From: Candidatus Dormiibacterota bacterium
GTDB lineage: Bacteria; Chloroflexota; Dormibacteria; CF-121
Length of the DNA: 64,000 nt
Assembly (NCBI GenBank): GCA_035279665.1
Contig: DATEHI010000011.1
Location: forward strand, 1,157-65,156
Direction: 5' to 3'
Shown here: positions 942-56,875 of the stretch, piece by piece
Numbering within the stretch: position 1 is the stretch's first letter
How the letters are laid out: every line of letters starts with the position of its first letter
The notes under the pieces: model-generated
What the model was told of the DNA's origin: nothing
Databases searched by the model: none
What the model saw: only the letters and a program-made list of their open reading frames with translations
Made by a program: the position numbers and the translations under genes

Positions 942-993
942 CTGTGGTTAGTTCCGAGACGTCCGCGTGCGTCTACTGGAGTCCGTGGCGTGA

Positions 994-1040
994 CGCCGAT
1001 TAAGAGTCAGCTGCTCTACCAACTGAGCTATGTAGGCGCC
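994..1040 (-). pseudogene. tRNA-Lys(CUU) 5' fragment: acceptor 5' strand, D-arm and anticodon arm only, no T-arm
   Basis: The reverse complement GGCGCCTACATAGCTCAGTTGGTAGAGCAGCTGACTCTTAATCGGCG folds as a 7-bp acceptor 5' strand, a canonical D-arm and an anticodon stem GCTGA/TCGGC (one G-U) with loop CTCTTAA, giving anticodon CTT. The sequence that follows (TCACGCCACGGACTCCAG...) has no TpsiC arm or acceptor 3' strand. Confidence 0.5.
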
Positions 1041-1084
1041 GCATATTGCATTCGACATCGTCCGCTGCGTGTCGCTGAATGCAC

Positions 1085-1130
1085 GGACGTCCACCGGCGT
1101 TGTTGTCAAGTTGTTGTCAAAACCGGCGGC
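1085..1130. repeat. fragment of the MITE-like repeat family (GACGTCCACCGGCGTTG core followed by a tandem GTTGTTGTCAA x2)
   Basis: It shares the core GACGTCCACCGGCGTTG with the copies at 6160 and 9700. In those copies the tandem 9-mer is GTTGCTACA, so the tandem unit differs here. Confidence 0.45.
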
Positions 1131-1499
1131 GCTGCCGGGCGGTCGCTGAAGGTTGCCGCGCTATCCGTCGCTTCCAGGGCGGCTGAAGGCGAAGAAAAAG
1201 GAGATCGAAGGCATCAGGCCGCAGTGGCAGGATGGGAGATGCCGACGCGAGCGACCTGCGTGGCTTTGCGGTCACGGACCCGGACCTTGCGGCGCCGCGA
1301 GGCGATCGGCGCTTCGAGCGGCTAACTCAGGCTGGTTGAGGCGGAAGCCAGGCACGTGACCATCCCTGGGTCGGACACTGCGAGGCGTCCTGGAGACAGG
1401 AACTACCGTCAATTTGACCATGGGCAGCCTGGATGACTAGCGGCTTGGCGGCCGAGGCCTTGGTTAACGCGGGCGCAACGTCCTGGTTTCTGACGGCCG

Positions 1500-1530
1500 G
1501 TTTGCCAAGACCGCGGTTTGAAGTTCGACT
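1500..1530. repeat. fragment of the MITE-like repeat family (right terminal-inverted-repeat-like piece CCGCGGTTTGAAGTTCGAC)
   Basis: It matches the CAGCGGTTTTGAAGTTCGA end of the elements at 6040, 9585 and 14960. Confidence 0.4.
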
Positions 1531-1575
1531 GATTGGCATCCGTGTTGGACTGTTCGCATCGACGACAATCAGGCT

Positions 1576-2931
1576 ATGGATCGACCAATTCTCTATACGT
1601 GGAACAAGGGCGCCGCGCTTGCCTACCAGATCGTTGGCGACGGATCCGTCGATCTGATCTATCTCAGCGGAGCGGGCTCGAACCTGGAGTGGAATTGGCG
1701 CTATCCAGCCTACGCCGGCTATCTCCACCGGCTCGCCTCGTTTTCGCGGCTGATCCTTACGGATCGTCGAGGTTGGGGCTGCTCGGATCGCTTTCCACCA
1801 GGAAGAGCGCCCGAACTCGATGACCTCGTTGACGACCTGATGGCCGTCCGCGAGGCCGCCGCCGGCAAACCGCCCGCCCTGATGGCGGTCAACGAGTCCG
1901 GATGGGCGGCCATTGCGGCGGCTGCCCTACGGCCCGAGGCATTCTCCCGACTCATTCTCTTCGGATGTTCCCCCGTAGGTTCGCGAAGGGACGACATGCC
2001 GTGGGAAGTGGACCGTGGGCGGCTCGAGTCGTCCTATCGTGCCGTGGAGCGAGTCATCAACATGGCTGACTGGATTCGCGTCTTCGTTCGAGACCAGCAG
2101 CCGTCATTACGCGGCAACGAAGACGCAGCCGCCTGGCTGACTACCCTTTTCCGCCTTACGGCCGGGGCCGGCGCGGCGGCCGCCGAGGTGCGCAGCTGGG
2201 CCGACATCGACCTGCGCCAGCTGCTGCCGGGAATTGCCGTGCCGACCCTTGTGCTCTCTCGTCCGGCGGCCGACTACTGGCCGCCTGCGAGCGCTCGGTA
2301 CCTGGCGGCGCGCATTCCCAATGCGGAACTCGTCGAGTTACCCGGCGAGGACGGTTATCCGTGGGTTGGCGATTGGGAATCGGTGACCGAGCAGGTGCGG
2401 CGCTTCATCGCAGCCGAGGCGCCCGAATCACCTACGGCCCGGGTCCTATCGACGATGCTATTTACCGACATCGTTGAGTCAGCCAGGCATTCGGCTGAGC
2501 TCGGCGACCGCACGTGGCACCGCCTCCTCGATAGCCACAATCAAACGATTCGACGCCTGCTTGCCCAGCACAAGGGACGAGAGATGAACACGACAGGCGA
2601 TGGCTTCTTCGCAAGCTTCGATGTCCCTCAACAGGCTGTTAGCTGCGGGCTGGAGATCGTGAGGGCGGTCCGCATCCTTGGCCTCGAGGTTCGTGTCGGC
2701 ATCCACACCGGGGAATGCGATCTCATCGACGACAAACTGGCCGGCGCGGCTGTCACCATCGGCGCGAGAATCGCGGGAGCGGCGGCCGCCGGTGAGGTGC
2801 TGGTCTCGAACACCGTGAAGAGCCTGGTTACAGGATCGGATATCCCGTTCGTGAACCGGGGAGAGCACAAGCTGAAGGGCTTCGATGAGAGTTGGCCGTT
2901 GTACGAGGCGCTTAGCCGACGGAGTGAATGA
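1576..2931 (+). CDS. alpha/beta-hydrolase domain fused to a class III adenylate/guanylate cyclase catalytic domain
   Basis: The N-terminal ~300 aa look like an alpha/beta hydrolase (LTDRRGWGCSDR). The C-terminal part carries the class III cyclase motifs LFTDIVESARH, GDGFFASF and RVGIHTGE. Confidence 0.8.
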   Translation: MDRPILYTWNKGAALAYQIVGDGSVDLIYLSGAGSNLEWNWRYPAYAGYLHRLASFSRLILTDRRGWGCSDRFPPGRAPELDDLVDDLMAVREAAAGKPPALMAVNESGWAAIAAAALRPEAFSRLILFGCSPVGSRRDDMPWEVDRGRLESSYRAVERVINMADWIRVFVRDQQPSLRGNEDAAAWLTTLFRLTAGAGAAAAEVRSWADIDLRQLLPGIAVPTLVLSRPAADYWPPASARYLAARIPNAELVELPGEDGYPWVGDWESVTEQVRRFIAAEAPESPTARVLSTMLFTDIVESARHSAELGDRTWHRLLDSHNQTIRRLLAQHKGREMNTTGDGFFASFDVPQQAVSCGLEIVRAVRILGLEVRVGIHTGECDLIDDKLAGAAVTIGARIAGAAAAGEVLVSNTVKSLVTGSDIPFVNRGEHKLKGFDESWPLYEALSRRSE

Positions 2932-2989
2932 GCCTTGGTCAGGATGCCCCACCCTCAGAGCATGGAGCCGATGTCTGAGGCGCCTGTCG

Positions 2990-3740
2990 GGTATGCAACT
3001 ACCACTTCCTTTAGCTCACTCGCTCGCCGGCGGGCAGGTCAAGCCTAACGCCCGCTCGACTTCATCGACCTCATCCACGGTTGGACCAAGCTTGATCGTT
3101 TCGAGGTGGCTCCTTTCAAGCCGCCCGCACGGCGGCGCCCTTGGCAAGCGCGATCAACTCGTCCACGGACCACTGGTCATAGGCATGGGTCCCGTATTTC
3201 GCCGCTTTGATCTGGCCGGACGGCGCGATCAGAAAGTCGCCCGGGAGCAGATCGGACTCTCCGAGGTCAACCTGCTCGGTCAGTACAACTCTTGCCCGCA
3301 CGTGCTGGTTTATGCTGCCCGCCACCCTGAGAAGGTTGCGCGCCTCGTCCTCTTCGGAGGATCGGCGCGCGGCTGGACGGCCATGAGCTCGGCCCCGATC
3401 CAGGCGCTCTTGACCCTGATCGAAGTCGACTGGAACCTCTTCGCGGACACCGCGGCGCATCAGTGGCTGGGGTGGTCGGCCGGTGAGGCTGGCCGCGCCA
3501 CAGCCGAGACCTTCCGCGGCGCGGTGCGCTCCGCATGGCGACAAATCGCTCACACCGGCCTCTATCACTGGCGGTCGTCGTTCGTGCGCTTAAGGCCTCC
3601 CAGGCCAGCAACCGGATCCAGCCGAGGTCGGCGCTTTCTTCCTCGTACCAGTAAGGCAGCGCGTCGGCCAACTCCCGTCAGCCCTCCTTCGAGCCCATCA
3701 AGCCAACGAAATGGCGAGCTCGTGCGGCTATCTTAGGCCG
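2990..3740 (+). pseudogene. decayed alpha/beta-hydrolase remnant (only an internal segment is protein-like)
   Basis: ORF 2885..3736 overlaps the cyclase stop. It is protein-like only in VLVYAARHPEKVARLVLFGGSARGWTAMSSAPIQALLTLIEVDWNLFADTAAHQWLGW (an alpha/beta-hydrolase-like HPE+VxxLVL segment). The flanking translation is low-complexity. A minus-strand ORF 3116..3568 overlaps it, and neither is convincing as an intact gene. Confidence 0.3.
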
Positions 3741-3827
3741 TCACCATCAAAGATTACGTGGGTACAGCACTCGGATGTGACCGGCCCGTGGCCGCTTCAC
3801 AGAGTGATAGGTTCCAATTGCTTGAAC

Positions 3828-5144
3828 CTACGGGATGCGCAACTCGAGGCCCCATTTGTCGACGGCGAAGGGACCGATCTCCTTGTTGACCAGGGTCGTC
3901 GCGTCGTACGCCGCGACGCCGCTGGTGTAGTAGGCGTCGGCGATTGCCGCGTCACTCAGCTTCCCGTAGCGGGTCTGTGGGCGTCCGTGGAATCGGTCGT
4001 GGAGCCAGAGCATTGCTCCCGGCCGCTCCATTATTCGGCCCACGAAGAAGCTGCGAGCCTCGTTTCGCGAGATCGTGATCGGGCCTCCGGTACCGGTGTC
4101 GAGAATTAGCGTAAGCGGCACCTTCATGTCGTCGATCGCCTTACCTTGAAAAACCCGCCTCATAGGCTTGGTAACCCCAGAAATGTCGGCCATGTCCAAC
4201 TGGAGCGGCGCCCTAGGCTCGTCGTCATGCACGTAGGCGTGCAAATAGAGCACGCCGCGAAGCCCGCGGTCTCGTTCACCCATACCAGCCTCATGGCTCA
4301 TGTCGGTCATCCCTCTCGGCTCTCCGGCGGCTTGGCCCGGGAGCTTGACGACGCCCGCATCAGCCTGGGCCATCGCTATTGCCCACTGCTGCACCGACGA
4401 CTGAAATTGGAGCTCTTCAGCTTTCGCCTGCTGGGAACGCAGCGCCCCCGCCAGCTCCTGAAGAAGGTCTAAGGCCTTTGCCTTGTCCTTCTTGTAAAGG
4501 TGGTCGAAGTAGTTGCTGTTCTTGCCAAGGAATCTGCTTTGCGCCACGTTAGCCATCTCCGTGATCAGGCTGTACTGCACGTGGTAGAACTCGTCGATGG
4601 CGCTCTCGCCCTTTTCCTCTTCGGATCGCTTGTAGGCCTCGACCCCGGCGTCAAAGCCCGTCTTCATCGACTCTTTTGAGGCCTCTCGAATCAGGTCCTT
4701 TGACAGCTCCGTGAGTGTTTCCTTGAACTGCTTTTCGACGACGCCGGCGACTCCCTCGGCCACCGCGAGACCCAGCCCATCCGTCGTGGCCGCCAATACT
4801 CCGATGGCGCAGATTTTGAGAATTTCGAGTTCGATGTGCTTCTCGCGGTAACTGGCAGCCTTCTGCCATTGATTCAGGCCCGGGAGTTGCTGCATGACCA
4901 GCCAGTTGAACTGGTTCGAGACGATCTGCTTGGCGGATTCAAAGGAGGTCCAGTTCGAGGGGTCCTTACCTTCGTGCTGAATCTGGTCGGCGACAGGATC
5001 GTGCACGACCGTGGGCGGGGCCTTCGCTGGGGCATGGAGCGCTGCCGGGGCCGGCTTTCGTGCCACGAGGGTCCCAACCGCTGCGTTGCCCGCCGTCCGC
5101 TGCAACGCGAGCAAGGACTCAGGGCTCAGGGCCTGGCCGGCCAT
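3828..5144 (-). CDS. toxin/effector-like protein with a DUF4157-type N-terminal LxLQRTAGNAAV motif, a lower-GC central helical region and an unassigned C-terminal domain
   Basis: ATG at 5144 gives MAGQALSPESLLALQRTAGNAAVGTLVARKPAPA..., 438 aa. A GTG about 110 nt upstream would add a K/R/D-rich disordered leader. Codons in the 4450-4900 segment are AT-richer (GAA, AAA, TTA, ATA) than the surrounding high-GC DNA. The C-terminal ~150 aa (GVLYLHAYVHDDEP...LWLHDRFHGRPQTRYGKL...) matches no domain I can name. Confidence 0.55.
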   Translation of the reverse strand: MAGQALSPESLLALQRTAGNAAVGTLVARKPAPAALHAPAKAPPTVVHDPVADQIQHEGKDPSNWTSFESAKQIVSNQFNWLVMQQLPGLNQWQKAASYREKHIELEILKICAIGVLAATTDGLGLAVAEGVAGVVEKQFKETLTELSKDLIREASKESMKTGFDAGVEAYKRSEEEKGESAIDEFYHVQYSLITEMANVAQSRFLGKNSNYFDHLYKKDKAKALDLLQELAGALRSQQAKAEELQFQSSVQQWAIAMAQADAGVVKLPGQAAGEPRGMTDMSHEAGMGERDRGLRGVLYLHAYVHDDEPRAPLQLDMADISGVTKPMRRVFQGKAIDDMKVPLTLILDTGTGGPITISRNEARSFFVGRIMERPGAMLWLHDRFHGRPQTRYGKLSDAAIADAYYTSGVAAYDATTLVNKEIGPFAVDKWGLELRIP

Positions 5145-5962
5145 CGCGGCAACCCACGGAGCATCTGGCCTCCTGGCCGCCAGTGTATCGTCCCGTCGTT
5201 TGGCCTGGTCCCGGGTCTCAGCGCCCGACTTGGCGGCGATCTTCTTCTGGCCGCCCACGGTAACAAGGGAACTCGGTTGCGGCGCTGCCGTCAATCGTCC
5301 AGCACTCAAAAAATGGGGAAGGACCCGTTGCCCGAAAGGGCAATGCTCGGCAACTTCCAGCCCGGCTCGGACGCTACTGCCCGGGTCGGAAGAATAGGCG
5401 CATCTCGGGCGGAAAGTGGGCGAGCACGTCATCGGGAACGTCGAGCTGAAAGTCGACGGACCGCTGGTCGACCAAGCCGTCGAGGGCGACCCGGATGAGT
5501 TCGCGGCACGCTTCTTCCGGCAGGTTGATCTCCTGCAATACGGCTCGGCGCTGTCACAGCACGGTGTCCATCCGAGCTGGCATCCGGCCGGTCGCTTCCC
5601 GGAGCCAGCCGGTTTCCCCAGCGGGATCCAGACCAGCCGCAATCAGCTCGAGCTGCCGCCGCTTGTGCCGCCAAAGCCGGTCGCCGCCTTAGCCATTTGG
5701 ATCGGAGGCGTTCTAACGCTCAGGCCGTCTTGACCAGATCCGAGACACGGTCTTCCCCCGCCTCGAACCGTACCTGTAGCCCGCGTAGCCACTTACGCGA
5801 TCTGTGCCAGGACCCTTTTCCCAGCGACTGGGACTCCTGCGGGTTGGAGCCCACTCTCCGGTCTCCGAGCACCGCTCCCTGCTTATGCCGTCAGTTACGC
5901 CATCAGGGTGCTCGTCCGCCGTGCGGCCCGACTGCGGTCAGTTACTGACGACGGCCGCGGCG

Positions 5963-6195
5963 GTCACTGGCCCAATTCGAAACTGGCGGGGGCGCGACGG
6001 GAACGATCCGTCCGTCGACATCGCCAAGGATGCCGACCAGCGGTTTTGAAGTTCGACCAAGTTTCGTCTTAGTGCGTCCGCGGACGTCCATTCCGTGTTG
6101 CTGCGTATTCGAGCGGGCGAGGTTGTCGTGCTGAATTGGGTTGCTGCGTCCACAGACGTCCACCGGCGTTGCTACATGCGTTACTACATGGTTGC
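5963..6195. repeat. MITE-like repeat family, copy A: right-TIR module (CAATTCGAAACTGGCGGGGGCGCGACGGGAACGATCC...CAGCGGTTTTGAAGTTCGA) followed by the GTGCTGAATTG.GTTGCTGCGTCCACAGACGTCCACCGGCGTTGCTACATGCGTT.CTACA module
   Basis: It is almost identical over ~210 bp to 9511..9740. It lies in the intergenic region between the toxin-like ORF and the ECF sigma gene. Confidence 0.7.
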
Positions 6196-6265: not shown

Positions 6266-7291
6266 TTATCGGCTCGGGATCGATCGCGGGAGCCGAAATG
6301 ATGCGAGGACAGTGTTTTCGAAGCGAGTCATGGCCGAGATCCGGTCCCCGGAGAGGGTGAGGACGAAGAGGCCGATCCCATAGCTGATGCCATTGGGCGC
6401 ACGCAAGTAGGCAGCGAACGCCGGCTGACCGTTGGCACGTGTCGGCACGAGGTCGAATCTGTGCCCCACGCTCAAGATGCTGCCCCAGAACCGCGTGACG
6501 AGGTCCAGGCCTTTGTATTCGAAAGGCATCGGTGGCATCGCGACGTAGACATCGTCAGTCAGGAGTGCCACCAGCGCGTCGAGATTGGCTGACTCCCAAG
6601 CCTGCACGAACTTTGCCACGAGGGCCTGTTCGGAGGGCGAGTAATGCAATGGAGATGTTTCGAGATCGGTGCCGGGCGACCATCGACGCTCCAGGCTGGC
6701 GCGCGCACGCTTGAGGATGCTGTTGACCGATTCGATGGTCGAGTCCAGCATGTCAGCCACCTCTTTCGCATGGAATCCGAGGACATCACGCAGTACGAGC
6801 ACGGCGACCTGGCGAGGCGGGAGGACCTGAAGTGCTATTACGAATGCGAGAGAGACGGATTCCTTCTGCTCGTACCGGGCCTCCGGACCCAGTGGCACAT
6901 TGGCGCCCTCAAGAATGGCGTCGGGATATGGCTCGAGCCAGACGATGTCGCCCAGCCCGGTCGGCTCGGGCGGTTCGAGACTAGGCATATCCCCCTCCTT
7001 TGCCGGGCGGCGGCTGGCTGACCGCCGAGCGTTGAGACACTTGTTGGTGGCAATCCGGTAGAGCCAGGTGCGGATTGAGGCGCGCTCCTCGAAGCCTTCG
7101 AAGCCTTGCCAGGCGGCCAACAGCGCGTCCTGGAGAGCGTCTTCGGCGTCCTGGAGGGATCCGAGCATCCGATAGCAGTGCACCTGCAGCTCCGGGCGGT
7201 ATGGCTCGGTGAGCTCCCGGAACGCATCGCCGTCGCCGGCGCGCACTCGCGATATCAGATCGGCTCCTTCGATCATCGCTCCATCTTGCAA
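6266..7291 (-). CDS. ECF-type RNA polymerase sigma-70 factor with a C-terminal SnoaL/NTF2-like extension (ECF41/SigJ-like)
   Basis: Sigma-70 region 2 (YRPELQVHCYRMLGSLQDAEDALQDALLAAW) and region 4 (VLRDVLGFHAKEVADMLDSTIESVNSILKRAR) are followed by a ~120-aa NTF2-like tail. There is no adjacent anti-sigma gene, as is typical for ECF41. Confidence 0.85.
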   Translation of the reverse strand: MQDGAMIEGADLISRVRAGDGDAFRELTEPYRPELQVHCYRMLGSLQDAEDALQDALLAAWQGFEGFEERASIRTWLYRIATNKCLNARRSASRRPAKEGDMPSLEPPEPTGLGDIVWLEPYPDAILEGANVPLGPEARYEQKESVSLAFVIALQVLPPRQVAVLVLRDVLGFHAKEVADMLDSTIESVNSILKRARASLERRWSPGTDLETSPLHYSPSEQALVAKFVQAWESANLDALVALLTDDVYVAMPPMPFEYKGLDLVTRFWGSILSVGHRFDLVPTRANGQPAFAAYLRAPNGISYGIGLFVLTLSGDRISAMTRFENTVLASFRLPRSIPSR

Positions 7292-7408: not shown

Positions 7409-8062
7409 ATGACACCGATCGCCGATCAGGTCAATGACGTGAATACCGCCCTCGCCAGCCAGGCGCCCGCGGACGTAGTCGCCGTGTTCGGGTCTGAGCT
7501 GGCCGCGCTCGCCGCCGGCGGAATCCCGGCCGGAGCGGTGTCGGTCGGCGACAAGCTGACGCCCTTCGCGCTGCCCGACGCCACCGGCAAGATCCGGACG
7601 CTTGACGAGCTCACCGCCCAGGGTCCCGCCGTGATCTTCTTCTATCGGGGTGGCTGGTGCCCGTACTGCAATGTGACGCTTCGTAGCTACCAACGCGAGC
7701 TTGTGCCCAACCTCGGCCGATACTCCGCGCGCCTGGTTGCGATCTCGCCGGAGACCCCGGACGCGTCGCTCACCACACAGCAGAAAGCCGAGCTGACCTA
7801 CACGGTGCTCAGCGACGCGGGTGCCGAGCTCGCCTCCTCTATCGGAATCACCTTCGAGCCCGCCGAGAGTCTCGCGGCACAACGCAAGCTCGGCATCGAT
7901 CTCCGCACCACCCGCGCAGACGGCGGCACCGTGCTGCCGATGCCGACCGTCCTGATCGTTGACCGCGACCACGTCGTGCGATTTGTCGACATCCACCCCG
8001 ACTACACCGGCGTCACCGAGGTCAGCGACATCCTCGCCGCCTTCGACACGCTCCAAAGCTGA
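7409..8062 (+). CDS. peroxiredoxin / redoxin (AhpC/TSA family)
   Basis: The RBS aaaggagaa precedes the ATG at 7409. The protein carries FFYRGGWCPYC with a resolving region, consistent with a thiol peroxidase. Confidence 0.75.
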   Translation: MTPIADQVNDVNTALASQAPADVVAVFGSELAALAAGGIPAGAVSVGDKLTPFALPDATGKIRTLDELTAQGPAVIFFYRGGWCPYCNVTLRSYQRELVPNLGRYSARLVAISPETPDASLTTQQKAELTYTVLSDAGAELASSIGITFEPAESLAAQRKLGIDLRTTRADGGTVLPMPTVLIVDRDHVVRFVDIHPDYTGVTEVSDILAAFDTLQS

Positions 8063-9363: not shown

Positions 9364-9408
9364 GGGACGACCCCCGACATCGACGAGGACGCCGACCTGC
9401 GGTTTTGG
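9364..9408. repeat. degenerate right-TIR-like fragment of the MITE-like family (GACGACCCCCGACATCGACGAGGACGCCGACCTGCGGTTTTGGAA)
   Basis: A diverged copy of the ...CCCCCGACATCGCCAAGGATGCC...GCGGTTTTGAAG module lies directly abutting copy D. Confidence 0.4.
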
Positions 9409-9596
9409 AAACCGTTGGTCGGCGTTGCTACATGCGTTGCTACAGAATGCATGATCCCGGGTAGACAGGTGTTAGCGGTCCTCGGCGAAAACTGACTGTC
9501 CGCAATGCGTGGTTCGAATTGAAAACTTGGCGGGGGCGCGACGGGAACGATCCGTCCCCCGACATCGCCAAGGATGCCGGGCAGCGGTTTTGAAGT
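9402..9596. repeat. MITE-like element copy D (~190 bp) with terminal inverted repeats TTGGAAACCGTTGGTCGGC ... GCCGGGCAGCGGTTTTGAAG
   Basis: The left end TTGGAAACCGTTGGTCGGCGTTGCTACATGCGTTGCTACA is the inverse complement of the right end. The internal part matches copy C at 14781..14969, and the right module is identical to copy C and nearly identical to copy A. Confidence 0.7.
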
Positions 9597-9740
9597 TCGA
9601 GTAACTTTCGTTTCAGTGCGTCCACAGCCGTCCATTCCGTGTTGTTGCGTATTCGAGCGGGAGGGGTCCTCGTGCTGAATTGTGTTGCTGCGTCCACAGA
9701 CGTCCACCGGCGTTGCTACATCCGCTGCTACACGCGTCGA
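9597..9740. repeat. second module of the repeat family (copy B right half: GTGCGTCCACAGCCGTCCATTCCGTGTTGTTGCG...GACGTCCACCGGCGTTGCTACATCCGCTGCTACA)
   Basis: It is near-identical to 6060..6195. Together with 9511..9596 it reproduces the arrangement of copy A. Confidence 0.65.
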
Positions 9741-14780: not shown

Positions 14781-14969
14781 TTGCAAACCGTTGGTCGGCG
14801 TTGCTACATGCGTTGCTACCGAACGCATGTTCCATGGGAGTCAGACGTTAGCGCTCGTTGGCGATAATCGACCGTCTCCGATATCCAATTCGAATCTAAA
14901 ATGGCGGGGGCGCGACGGGAACGATCCGTCCCCCGACATCGCCAAGGATGCCGGGCAGCGGTTTTGAAG
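14781..14969. repeat. MITE-like element copy C (~190 bp) with TIRs TTGCAAACCGTTGGTCGGC ... GCCGGGCAGCGGTTTTGAAG
   Basis: It shares the same ends and internal core (..TTAGCG.TC.T.GGCGA.AA..GAC..) as copy D at 9402..9596. It lies between the sulfide operon and trxA. Confidence 0.7.
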
Positions 14970-15015
14970 ACCGTGGAGCCCACCTGAGCCCATGCACCCC
15001 CGTGCCCGACGAAGG

Positions 15016-53299: not shown

Positions 53300-56875
<3,576 letters not shown>

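Follow-up and report, generated by a model that had tools for sequence, protein, structure and literature searches.

The minus-strand gene at 3828..5258 of the window (by which we mean the whole 64,000-nucleotide stretch of DNA that was analysed) is intact, conserved and under long-term purifying selection, and we give a probability of roughly 55% to the reading that it encodes an orphan cargo or effector of the contractile injection system (CIS) type, made of a disordered basic N-terminus, a leader, a Pro/Ala linker and a new body of ~380 amino acids. This body is previously undescribed, with no known sequence or structural relative, and the leader and the body family are linked statistically and genomically to eCIS_core and CIS clusters. 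Loading into a CIS, the presence of such a machine elsewhere in the genome, toxicity and a membrane target are further parts of this reading that we infer.

The ORF list and the sequence place on the minus strand a long ORF with its stop codon at 3828-3830, confirming the ORF of the initial annotation, whose upper end at 5260 fits a GTG at 5258. Judging from conservation, this GTG is most likely the start codon, as it is kept together with the N-terminal extension in all three orthologues, L001 and L002 included, giving a complete coding sequence of 476 codons at 3828..5258 (-). The product of 438 aa given previously corresponds to an in-frame alternative ATG at 5144 and has to be replaced by one of 476 aa, while the NCBI call (P0001, 355 aa) has a more internal start and so lacks the leader. 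Whole-gene dN/dS was 0.17-0.23 at a dS of about 0.9-1.0 in the orthologue comparison; with a ratio of about 0.2 the gene is therefore functional and under purifying selection, and a reading as pseudogene was rejected on these values. Scans for promoters and terminators near the gene gave no informative result.

Architecture of the predicted protein

Residues 1-47 (5118..5258, minus strand) form a hydrophilic, fast-evolving extension, a candidate for the disordered portion of a loading sequence, with a mean Kyte-Doolittle hydropathy of -0.85, a net charge of +3 and 72% disorder-promoting residues. The frame is open throughout, the pattern Q[KR][KR][IL]A...RD.AKR is conserved in the three orthologues, and omega reaches 0.4-0.8. 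By its composition, the N-terminus of the window protein has no Sec- or Tat-like hydrophobic segment.

The leader motif follows at residues 48-69 (SLLALQRTAGNAAVGTLVARKP, 5052..5117, minus strand), with the core LQRxxGNxAV. It is invariant in the three orthologues, with an omega of 0.03-0.05 despite saturated synonymous sites, and takes a relaxed form in most of the distant family members. The characteristic motif reported earlier, LLALQRTAGNAAV, is indeed present, encoded at 5077-5105, and its DNA pattern is found a single time in the window, against 0 of 100 shuffles. Next comes a linker that its sequence marks as Pro/Ala-rich (PAPAALHAPAKAPPTVVHDPVADQI, residues 70-93, 4980..5051, minus strand), at whose position relatives carry eCIS_core or PG_binding_1 inserts.

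We also looked for the domain that the leader had been taken to announce. With hmmscan, the 604-aa ORF had no Pfam-A family at E <= 10, so that PF13699 (gathering score 22 bits) is not matched by the product, and HExxH, searched for by regex, is missing from the window protein, as had been noted for the part after the leader. Filing the protein under DUF4157 was rejected on these two results. What holds of the DUF4157 assignment is that the leader marks proteins linked to DUF4157 or CIS, as 5 of 29 relatives and 19 of 107 leader-bearing ORFs indicate, while the protein itself is devoid of PF13699.

The body could be modelled only with family depth: AlphaFold2 with the three orthologues alone gave a pLDDT of 32.8, while an alignment of 19 sequences led to a confident model (pLDDT 82, pTM 0.83), which is a compact bundle followed by a globular domain and not an extended coil. 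The helical-bundle domain comprises model helices 13-208 (4356..4943, minus strand) and includes a conserved hydrophobic Gly/Ala-rich helix, HIELEILKICAIGVLAATTDGLGLAVAEGV, model helix 51-80 (4740..4829, minus strand), identified from hydropathy across the family. In 16 of 19 family members the 19-residue Kyte-Doolittle mean reaches >=1.6 at this same place in the alignment, and the sole sequence hint over this region is a sub-threshold SseC match in relatives. Conservation and the model delimit a C-terminal alpha/beta domain at model residues 210-383 (3831..4352, minus strand), with a pLDDT of about 85-95 over most of its length and near-invariant positions in the family alignment at GTDxS, G242, G268, P288 and N306-E307; the last pair is the NE of SRNEA, encoded at 4059-4064.

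None of the single-sequence searches of Pfam, NCBIfam, PADLOC and PDB sequences matched any part of the protein, the family profile found nothing below E 0.3 among PDB sequences, and the body model had no significant structural neighbour in PDB and BFVD, viral ones included. Neither in sequence nor in structure was the protein significantly similar to alpha-helical pore formers and translocators (ClyA-Nhe-Hbl, the colicin pore domain, SseC/EspD). The conserved Asn-Glu pair led us to consider an ADP-ribosyltransferase-like or other enzyme activity for the C-terminal domain, for which no supporting similarity was found. The initial annotation had set apart the C-terminal ~150 aa as an unassigned domain; unassigned it is, but the conserved unit is the whole body of ~380 aa.

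Relatives of the protein and distribution of the leader

A word-index search of 5.8e9 clusters retrieved only the gene itself and two close relatives, and an exhaustive search of 1.84e9 clusters 29 representatives, all distant, so the family is rare. Repeating the word-index search with the family profile added one further member only, and with the leader profile three short ORFs.

PF13699 eCIS_core lies between leader and body in five of the 29 relatives (best E 3.6e-34) and PG_binding_1 in three; the regex scan found HExxH in P0004, P0011, P0019, P0026 and P0029. Two of the five eCIS_core-bearing relatives are inside CIS gene clusters. One is P0004, the closest distant relative (E 1.7e-30), which in locus L006 sits between an AAA ATPase and Pvc16_N, together with two sheath genes, tube genes, VgrG, PAAR and gp25; the other is P0011, which in L013 adjoins CIS_tube and Phage_base_V genes. 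Both are amid CIS core genes and not at the 3' end, the usual place of effector genes, and this counts against the cargo reading. Most family members are orphans in unrelated contexts.

The same isolation was found in the window, as had been stated before. The 12 CIS proteins of L006 had no tblastn match in the 64-kb window, and when 52 of its ORFs were compared with PHROGs, the 25 matched families listed, out of 72, included none for sheath, tube or baseplate. Downstream of the gene there is no small conserved immunity gene and no candidate from a known family, in line with the earlier remark, but only a weak alpha/beta-hydrolase remnant and unsupported ORFs. In the library searched, no paper pairs Dormibacterota with contractile injection systems, and a literature search for the motif string returned nothing relevant. 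The lack of CIS genes in the window, of a conserved immunity-like neighbour and of such a paper weighs against the cargo reading.

We surveyed 120 genomic loci with LQRxAGNxAV in GTDB reference genomes and scored domains in 107 leader-bearing ORFs. The leader is common in Actinomycetota, and its median distance from the upstream stop is 67 codons. Its commonest partner domain is eCIS_core (19/107), which starts a median of 38 residues past the motif, and peptidoglycan-binding domains come next (PG_binding_1 in 5, PG_binding_3 in 3). [quoted passage not shown] The leader-bearing ORFs thus show a conserved N-terminal module with variable C-terminal domains, a trait of polymorphic toxins. That the leader is modular is also apparent in L134, where an unrelated PG-binding protein starts with the identical leader core QRTAGNAAVGT.

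CIS structural genes (sheath, tube or cap) lie within 8 kb (<=8 kb) of 18 of the 120 leader loci (15%), and CIS genes are found at this distance from 9 of the 100 leader-only ORFs. Most leader genes are orphans, as 91 of the 120 loci (76%) have neither DUF4157 nor CIS genes <=8 kb away, which means that the leader could serve another route. These counts make the orphan effector proposed in the initial annotation a reasonable description of the gene; toxicity, proposed together with it, is without support in this analysis.

Rival readings of the gene

The gene might instead be a recently acquired foreign one, on a decaying tRNA-linked island and with no current role in the host. Several elements of the island described earlier were recovered: a tRNA-Lys fragment at 970-1037 (-), 2.8 kb away, which scores 22.9 bits (below the gathering score of 29) and aligns to the 5' half and upstream flank of the intact tRNA-Lys(CTT) in L134; two 205-nt repeats, 90% identical, at 5984-6188 and 9528-9732, with partial copies; and a 34-nt repeat core that brackets the segment on both sides (1069-1102 and 6138-6171). 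A candidate gene remnant, likely of an alpha/beta-hydrolase, adjoins the gene at 2885-3736 with a sub-threshold Abhydrolase_1 match, the orthologues lie in three unrelated neighbourhoods with different downstream genes (response regulator, Peptidase_M50), and the GC content of the gene is the fourth lowest of 44 reference genes. Composition, however, argues against recent arrival. The window has a GC content of 64.2%, and not the ~68% formerly ascribed to the host; the region 4452-4898, said to use AT-richer codons, is GC-poor (56.2%, lowest 0.2% of 450-nt windows), but its GC2 is 32% while its GC3 is 76% compared to a gene mean of 81% (sd 4), so the dip is an effect of amino-acid composition at codon position 2. 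For the target gene, GC3 (77.4% compared to 81.0%, sd 4.0, z = -0.9) and the CAI-like index (z = -1.1) match those of neighbouring genes and are within the host range, and the horizontal transfer deduced from codon usage was accordingly rejected. There is no integrase or transposase among the ORFs of the first 12 kb, and the dN/dS values, accumulated over a dS of about 1, indicate long-term selection. A decayed island therefore keeps weak support, with one candidate remnant on one side and a target gene under purifying selection on the other, and the reading as a foreign gene with no host role appears very improbable.

The positions of the relatives within CIS clusters raise another explanation, that the family is an accessory or structural factor of the machine (membrane-anchoring, assembly, firing-control or tape-measure-related), its orphans being paralogues that act in trans. 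P0011 immediately precedes tube-initiator-like and spike genes, where tape-measure genes are located, and P0004 is flanked by the AAA ATPase and the Pvc16 cap genes; long helices make up most of the body, which has one hydrophobic segment, an immunity gene is missing, and Streptomyces Tme and Sle1 are precedents for tape-measure-like proteins linked to DUF4157. Nevertheless, L006 holds a separate 424-aa candidate at the tape-measure position, where P0004 does not fit, the AlphaFold model is compact, and the tape-measure matches in BFVD were not significant (E 0.4-1.2). Considering moreover that bona fide toxin domains carry this leader too and that most family members are orphans in unrelated contexts, we hold an accessory role to be unlikely. 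The high proportion of orphan loci is what speaks for the leader being a CIS-independent trafficking or anchoring module of polymorphic envelope-active proteins, which would leave the cell by another route, such as lysis or an unrecognised secretion pathway; peptidoglycan-binding domains as second most common partner and a window with no detected CIS genes agree with this. It has to be set against eCIS_core being by far the most frequent partner, at a short distance past the motif, against the 9% of leader-only loci near CIS genes, a share judged, without a control sample, to be far above that of random windows, and against the lack of a Sec- or Tat-like hydrophobic N-terminus; we consider this module quite unlikely.

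Proposed mechanism, known systems and implications

On the preferred reading, as an orphan cargo, leader and disordered stretch would direct the protein to CIS particles whose genes lie elsewhere in the genome, possibly by way of an AAA+ loader, the spike complex or a small DUF4157 adaptor. The body would be the payload, with a hydrophobic Gly/Ala helix in its helical bundle and a near-invariant Asn-Glu pair in the alpha/beta domain behind it. It may act on a bacterial cell envelope, with perturbation of the membrane as the most plausible effect; the envelope is suggested as target by the peptidoglycan-binding domains that precede the body in some relatives, and the effector module is possibly envelope- or membrane-targeting.

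A similar marker-motif logic is found in MIX-motif T6SS effectors, in which a short conserved N-terminal motif precedes diverse C-terminal toxins and many of which are orphans far from secretion genes, although both machine and motif differ.

A close comparison within CIS is with the AlgoCIS cargos Cgo1 and Cgo2, whose loading needs the N-terminal domain (NTD) but not DUF4157 (bioRxiv 10.64898/2026.05.27.728243), and this makes a leader-only cargo plausible. Both have a hydrophilic, disorder-prone N-terminus before a variable C-terminal payload, and relatives of the window protein share the NTD-DUF4157-body layout; in contrast, the window protein is without DUF4157, has no CIS alongside, and its body is unrelated to any described CTD. 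Loading sequences of extracellular CIS (eCIS) are described as hydrophilic, slightly basic and disordered (PMC11297309; bioRxiv 10.64898/2026.05.27.728243), yet they are not conserved between systems (bioRxiv 10.64898/2026.05.27.728243), which counts against the leader as loading signal. In the eCIS_core 'PVC-metallopeptidase' proteins and eCIS-associated toxins (Geller 2021, PMC8213781; Danov 2024, PMC11297309), the leader often precedes PF13699, and the tie of the leader to CIS clusters and toxin C-termini is found again, as is a matching N-terminal biochemical profile. The window protein differs from the eCIS_core proteins in having neither PF13699 nor HExxH and in lying outside the operon neighbourhood used by published classifiers.

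Streptomyces offers a tape-measure-related CIS effector fused to DUF4157, the 2247-aa Tme (PMC11126660), and the pair Sle1/Sle2, in which Sle2 is a small DUF4157 adaptor binding the spike complex (PMC13277306); these actinobacterial CIS also act within the producer's own population (PMC11126660, PMC13277306). The window protein resembles Tme and Sle1/Sle2 as a helix-rich, CIS-linked protein with a hydrophobic segment, but it has no detectable tape-measure homology, no nuclease or other known C-terminal domain, and compared to Tme it is much shorter, with a compact model instead of an extended coil.

A broader proposal, which we offer tentatively as possible, is that LQRxxGNxAV may be a portable recruitment tag for a large CIS clade, mainly of Actinomycetota and Chloroflexota-like lineages, whose scattered cargo would be loaded in trans with DUF4157 optional, and that the window protein may represent a founding membrane-permeabilising effector fold in Dormibacteraeota. 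A CIS in this lineage, should there be one, would be the first sign of such a machine in Dormibacteraeota, a phylum without a described CIS. The body, rare, confidently modelled and without known relative, is a candidate for a new effector activity. At present, no conserved sequence signal is said to mark eCIS cargo for loading, and effectors are predicted from their proximity to the operon; a leader present on both DUF4157-bearing and DUF4157-less proteins would give a genome-wide sequence handle for orphan cargo, and a possible loading tag for engineered injection systems.

The target gene and its leader

A long minus-strand ORF with its stop end at 3828 carries, as the initial annotation had claimed, a DUF4157-associated leader (N-terminal motif LQRxxGNxAV). 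The frame upstream of ATG 5144 is open in all three orthologous loci, which also keep a GTG at the same place (window 5258) and, after it, the shared stretch Q[KR][KR][IL]A...RD.AKR; for this reason we took the gene as 3828-5258(-), with a probable GTG start and 476 aa, instead of the 438-aa product first proposed, which a start at ATG 5144 could still give. The protein matches NCBI VJT14_00590 ('Candidatus Dormibacteraeota bacterium' MAG) across all 355 aa of that entry, a call from which the N-terminus is missing. At 5164-5172(-) we also observed an AGGAGG with an out-of-frame ATG (5164) 4 nt downstream, opening a 12-codon ORF that overlaps ATG 5144, inside the proposed N-terminal coding extension; this may be coincidence or may bear on start-site choice.

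There are two close relatives, P0002 (Logan, locus L001; 75% identity) and P0003 (JGI, loci L002-L005; 72%). Across the three orthologues, whole-gene omega (dN/dS) is 0.17-0.23 at dS ~0.9-1.0, which shows purifying selection, and the gene is intact; on these grounds we reject a pseudogene. The leader SLLALQRTAGNAAVGTLVARKP (5052-5117, minus strand) is identical in all three, invariant despite saturated synonymous sites, with an omega of 0.03-0.05. At DNA level, the LQRxAGNxAV pattern has a single occurrence in the window against none in 100 shuffles, and the LQRxxGNxAV motif is undescribed among the papers found by a literature search of incomplete coverage.

The link to DUF4157 (now eCIS_core in Pfam) holds only in part. 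The leader's family and context are tied to eCIS_core and contractile injection systems (CIS), but the window protein matched zero Pfam families at E <= 10, gave no meaningful match in NCBIfam, PADLOC or PDB sequences, and, as initially noted, lacks HExxH. The Pfam result and the missing HExxH rule out a DUF4157 identity, and the protein itself is, judged from its sequence, not a member.

The body family and its injection-system relatives

We searched 1.84 billion cluster representatives exhaustively with phmmer (cut-off E <= 1e-3) and obtained 29 relatives, all sharing a ~380-aa C-terminal body and most bearing a relaxed leader 20-90 residues from the N-terminus. Between leader and body, five contain eCIS_core (best E 3.6e-34) and three contain PG_binding_1 in the same position. 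Among the distant relatives, P0004 (E 1.7e-30; locus L006) is the closest; it has an AAA ATPase gene (3' end) on one side and, on the other, Pvc16_N, with which a series of CIS genes begins (2 sheath, 2 tube, CIS_tube/LysM, VgrG, PAAR and gp25), while P0011 adjoins CIS_tube-like and Phage_base_V genes (L013). The leader-only relatives examined (P0002, P0003, P0006, P0007, P0008 and P0031) lie in unrelated contexts outside CIS clusters. CIS effectors are usually encoded at the 3' end of the cluster; we observed the DUF4157+body genes amid core CIS genes instead, between AAA ATPase and Pvc16 cap in L006 (498-2462) and directly before a tube-initiator-like gene in L013 (664-2406).

AlphaFold2 reached a pLDDT of 32.8 on three sequences, and 82 (pTM 0.83) on a 19-sequence body alignment, where it predicts a helical bundle (body residues 13-208) and an alpha/beta domain (210-383). 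Foldseek with this model found nothing significant in PDB (best E 0.86) or BFVD (best E 0.23), and a profile search of PDB sequences with the body family found nothing. In 16 of 19 members the alignment keeps a hydrophobic Gly/Ala-rich segment (window 4740-4829; Kyte-Doolittle 19-residue mean >=1.6) in one and the same place; for its region the sole sequence hint comes from relatives that match SseC below threshold. Near-invariant positions in the alignment, in body numbering, are F131, Q135, Q191, W199, G242, G268, P288 and N306-E307.

Composition and neighbourhood

Horizontal acquisition had been proposed from AT-richer codons in a host of ~68% GC. Window GC is 64.2%, and the target gene, at 61.3% (z = -1.5 vs 44 window genes), has a GC3 of 77.4% vs 81.0% (sd 4.0; z = -0.9) and a CAI-like index (z = -1.1) close to that of neighbouring non-housekeeping genes; on these last two scores we reject transfer by codon usage. 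The GC dip at 4452-4898 is real (56.2%), but it combines a GC2 of 32% with a GC3 of 76% and thus reflects Lys/Glu/Gln-rich helices. The orthologues occupy three neighbourhoods that are unrelated and have the target gene alone in common with the window; its position is therefore not conserved.

The notion of a decayed island is weakly supported by its remnants and repeats, but the target gene is intact and no integrase or transposase was seen among ORFs of the first 12 kb; by eye, the window ORFs are a usual set of housekeeping and regulatory genes. The tRNA-Lys(CTT) 5'-half remnant (970-1037(-)) is genuine and keeps ~100 bp of upstream flank with tandem TTGACAACAAC (within 970-1140). It aligns to an intact tRNA-Lys in the metagenomic locus L134 (region 2900-3110), the 3' half being unconserved in the window. 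In both places a leader-bearing gene lies upstream of and co-oriented with the tRNA-Lys (2.8 kb away in the window, adjacent in L134), an arrangement suggestive of a variable slot, linked to tRNA-Lys, for genes of this type. A probable alpha/beta-hydrolase remnant (2885-3736, plus strand; Abhydrolase_1 E 9.7e-4, below threshold) follows a gene at 1576-2931(+) that fuses an alpha/beta-hydrolase-like domain to a class III adenylate/guanylate cyclase; a cyclase gene also adjoins the relative P0006 in L008, possibly by coincidence. Two 205-nt intergenic direct repeats (5984-6188 and 9528-9732; 90% identity) have partial copies at 9368-9444 and 1069-1102. Their 3' core GACGTCCACCGGCGTTG recurs in the tRNA-Lys upstream flank, the 25-nt repeat core has no more than two occurrences across the 64 kb, and Rfam gave no match; a promoter-bearing repeat, a MITE and a pseudo-tRNA leader are candidates.

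In line with the initial annotation, no CIS structural genes were detected in the 64-kb window (tblastn with L006 CIS proteins; PHROGs, among matches listed), nor is there a conserved immunity gene near the target gene or its orthologues in the neighbourhoods examined. Elsewhere, a gyrB-like gene (53300-56866(-), 1188 aa) carries, by eye in the translation, an apparent intein-like insertion, a long insert resembling a homing endonuclease and set between conserved blocks of GyrB, and a PHROG match somewhere in the window to ribonucleotide reductase large subunit could reflect an intein. A tRNA-Sec (anticodon TCA; 14902-15001(-)), on which ARAGORN and Rfam agree (58.1 bits), implies probable selenoprotein synthesis in this Dormibacteraeota genome.

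The leader across genomes and a proposed role

A family-independent scan for DNA encoding [LF]QRxAGNxAV, in one genome per GTDB species, gave at least 120 leader loci, mostly in Actinomycetota and Chloroflexota-like MAGs. Among those listed, the motif lies in long ORFs (median 67 codons past the upstream stop), and eCIS_core is the commonest domain (19 of 107 leader ORF segments), followed by PG_binding_1 (5), PG_binding_3 (3), Ntox16 (2) and DUF922 (2); Scabin-like, PARP, Peptidase_M91, Het-C and Amidase_6 domains also appear. Sheath, tube or cap genes (tblastn, L006 CIS proteins) fall inside the 8-kb locus in 18 of the 120 listed, including 9 of the 100 whose leader ORF lacks DUF4157. We would judge these rates far above the background expected of random genomic windows; as the DUF4157 HMM and tblastn screen was conservative and the loci were not motif-centred, they are lower bounds. 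A metagenome scan for the exact core QRTAGNAAVGT added one locus, L134, where the leader stands at the head of a 699-aa protein that is otherwise unrelated and has two PG_binding_1 repeats. In L090, from a Candidatus Limnocylindrales MAG, a leader-only ORF without DUF4157 (from ~6170, motif 6587-6615, truncated by the locus boundary at 8000 and 611 codons or more in length) adjoins Pvc16, sheath and tube genes (CIS matches at 980-4134). This Chloroflexota-lineage locus shows that putative leader-only cargo can be encoded with a CIS in relatives of the Dormibacteraeota.

AlgoCIS cargos have an NTD-DUF4157-CTD layout, in which the disordered NTD is needed for tube loading and DUF4157 is dispensable (bioRxiv 10.64898/2026.05.27.728243). 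In Streptomyces, proteins with DUF4157 attach to components of the spike complex and are able to serve as trans-acting adaptors (PMC11126660, PMC13277306), and a machine-learning study characterises the signal regions of eCIS as disordered, hydrophilic and slightly basic (PMC11297309). The first 47 residues of the window protein resemble these regions (mean hydropathy -0.85, net charge +3, 72% disorder-promoting), and we therefore propose that this stretch and the leader would bring the protein to a CIS whose genes lie elsewhere, with the body as putative payload. Its target may be the bacterial envelope or membrane, considering the PG-binding inserts ahead of the body in some relatives and the conserved hydrophobic helix; this is the weakest step of the proposal.

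The initial observation was largely right. Its interpretation as a CIS-linked, effector-like orphan was correct in spirit, but domain membership and codon-based transfer were wrong. The window protein is a candidate CIS cargo, leader-only and DUF4157-less, with a novel body. Orphan location is the rule, not the exception, for the leader genes listed (91 of 120). Three independent lines, namely the family, the gene context and the family-independent scan, tie the leader to DUF4157 and injection systems, and the leader is therefore an N-terminal module of a polymorphic set of proteins associated with CIS.
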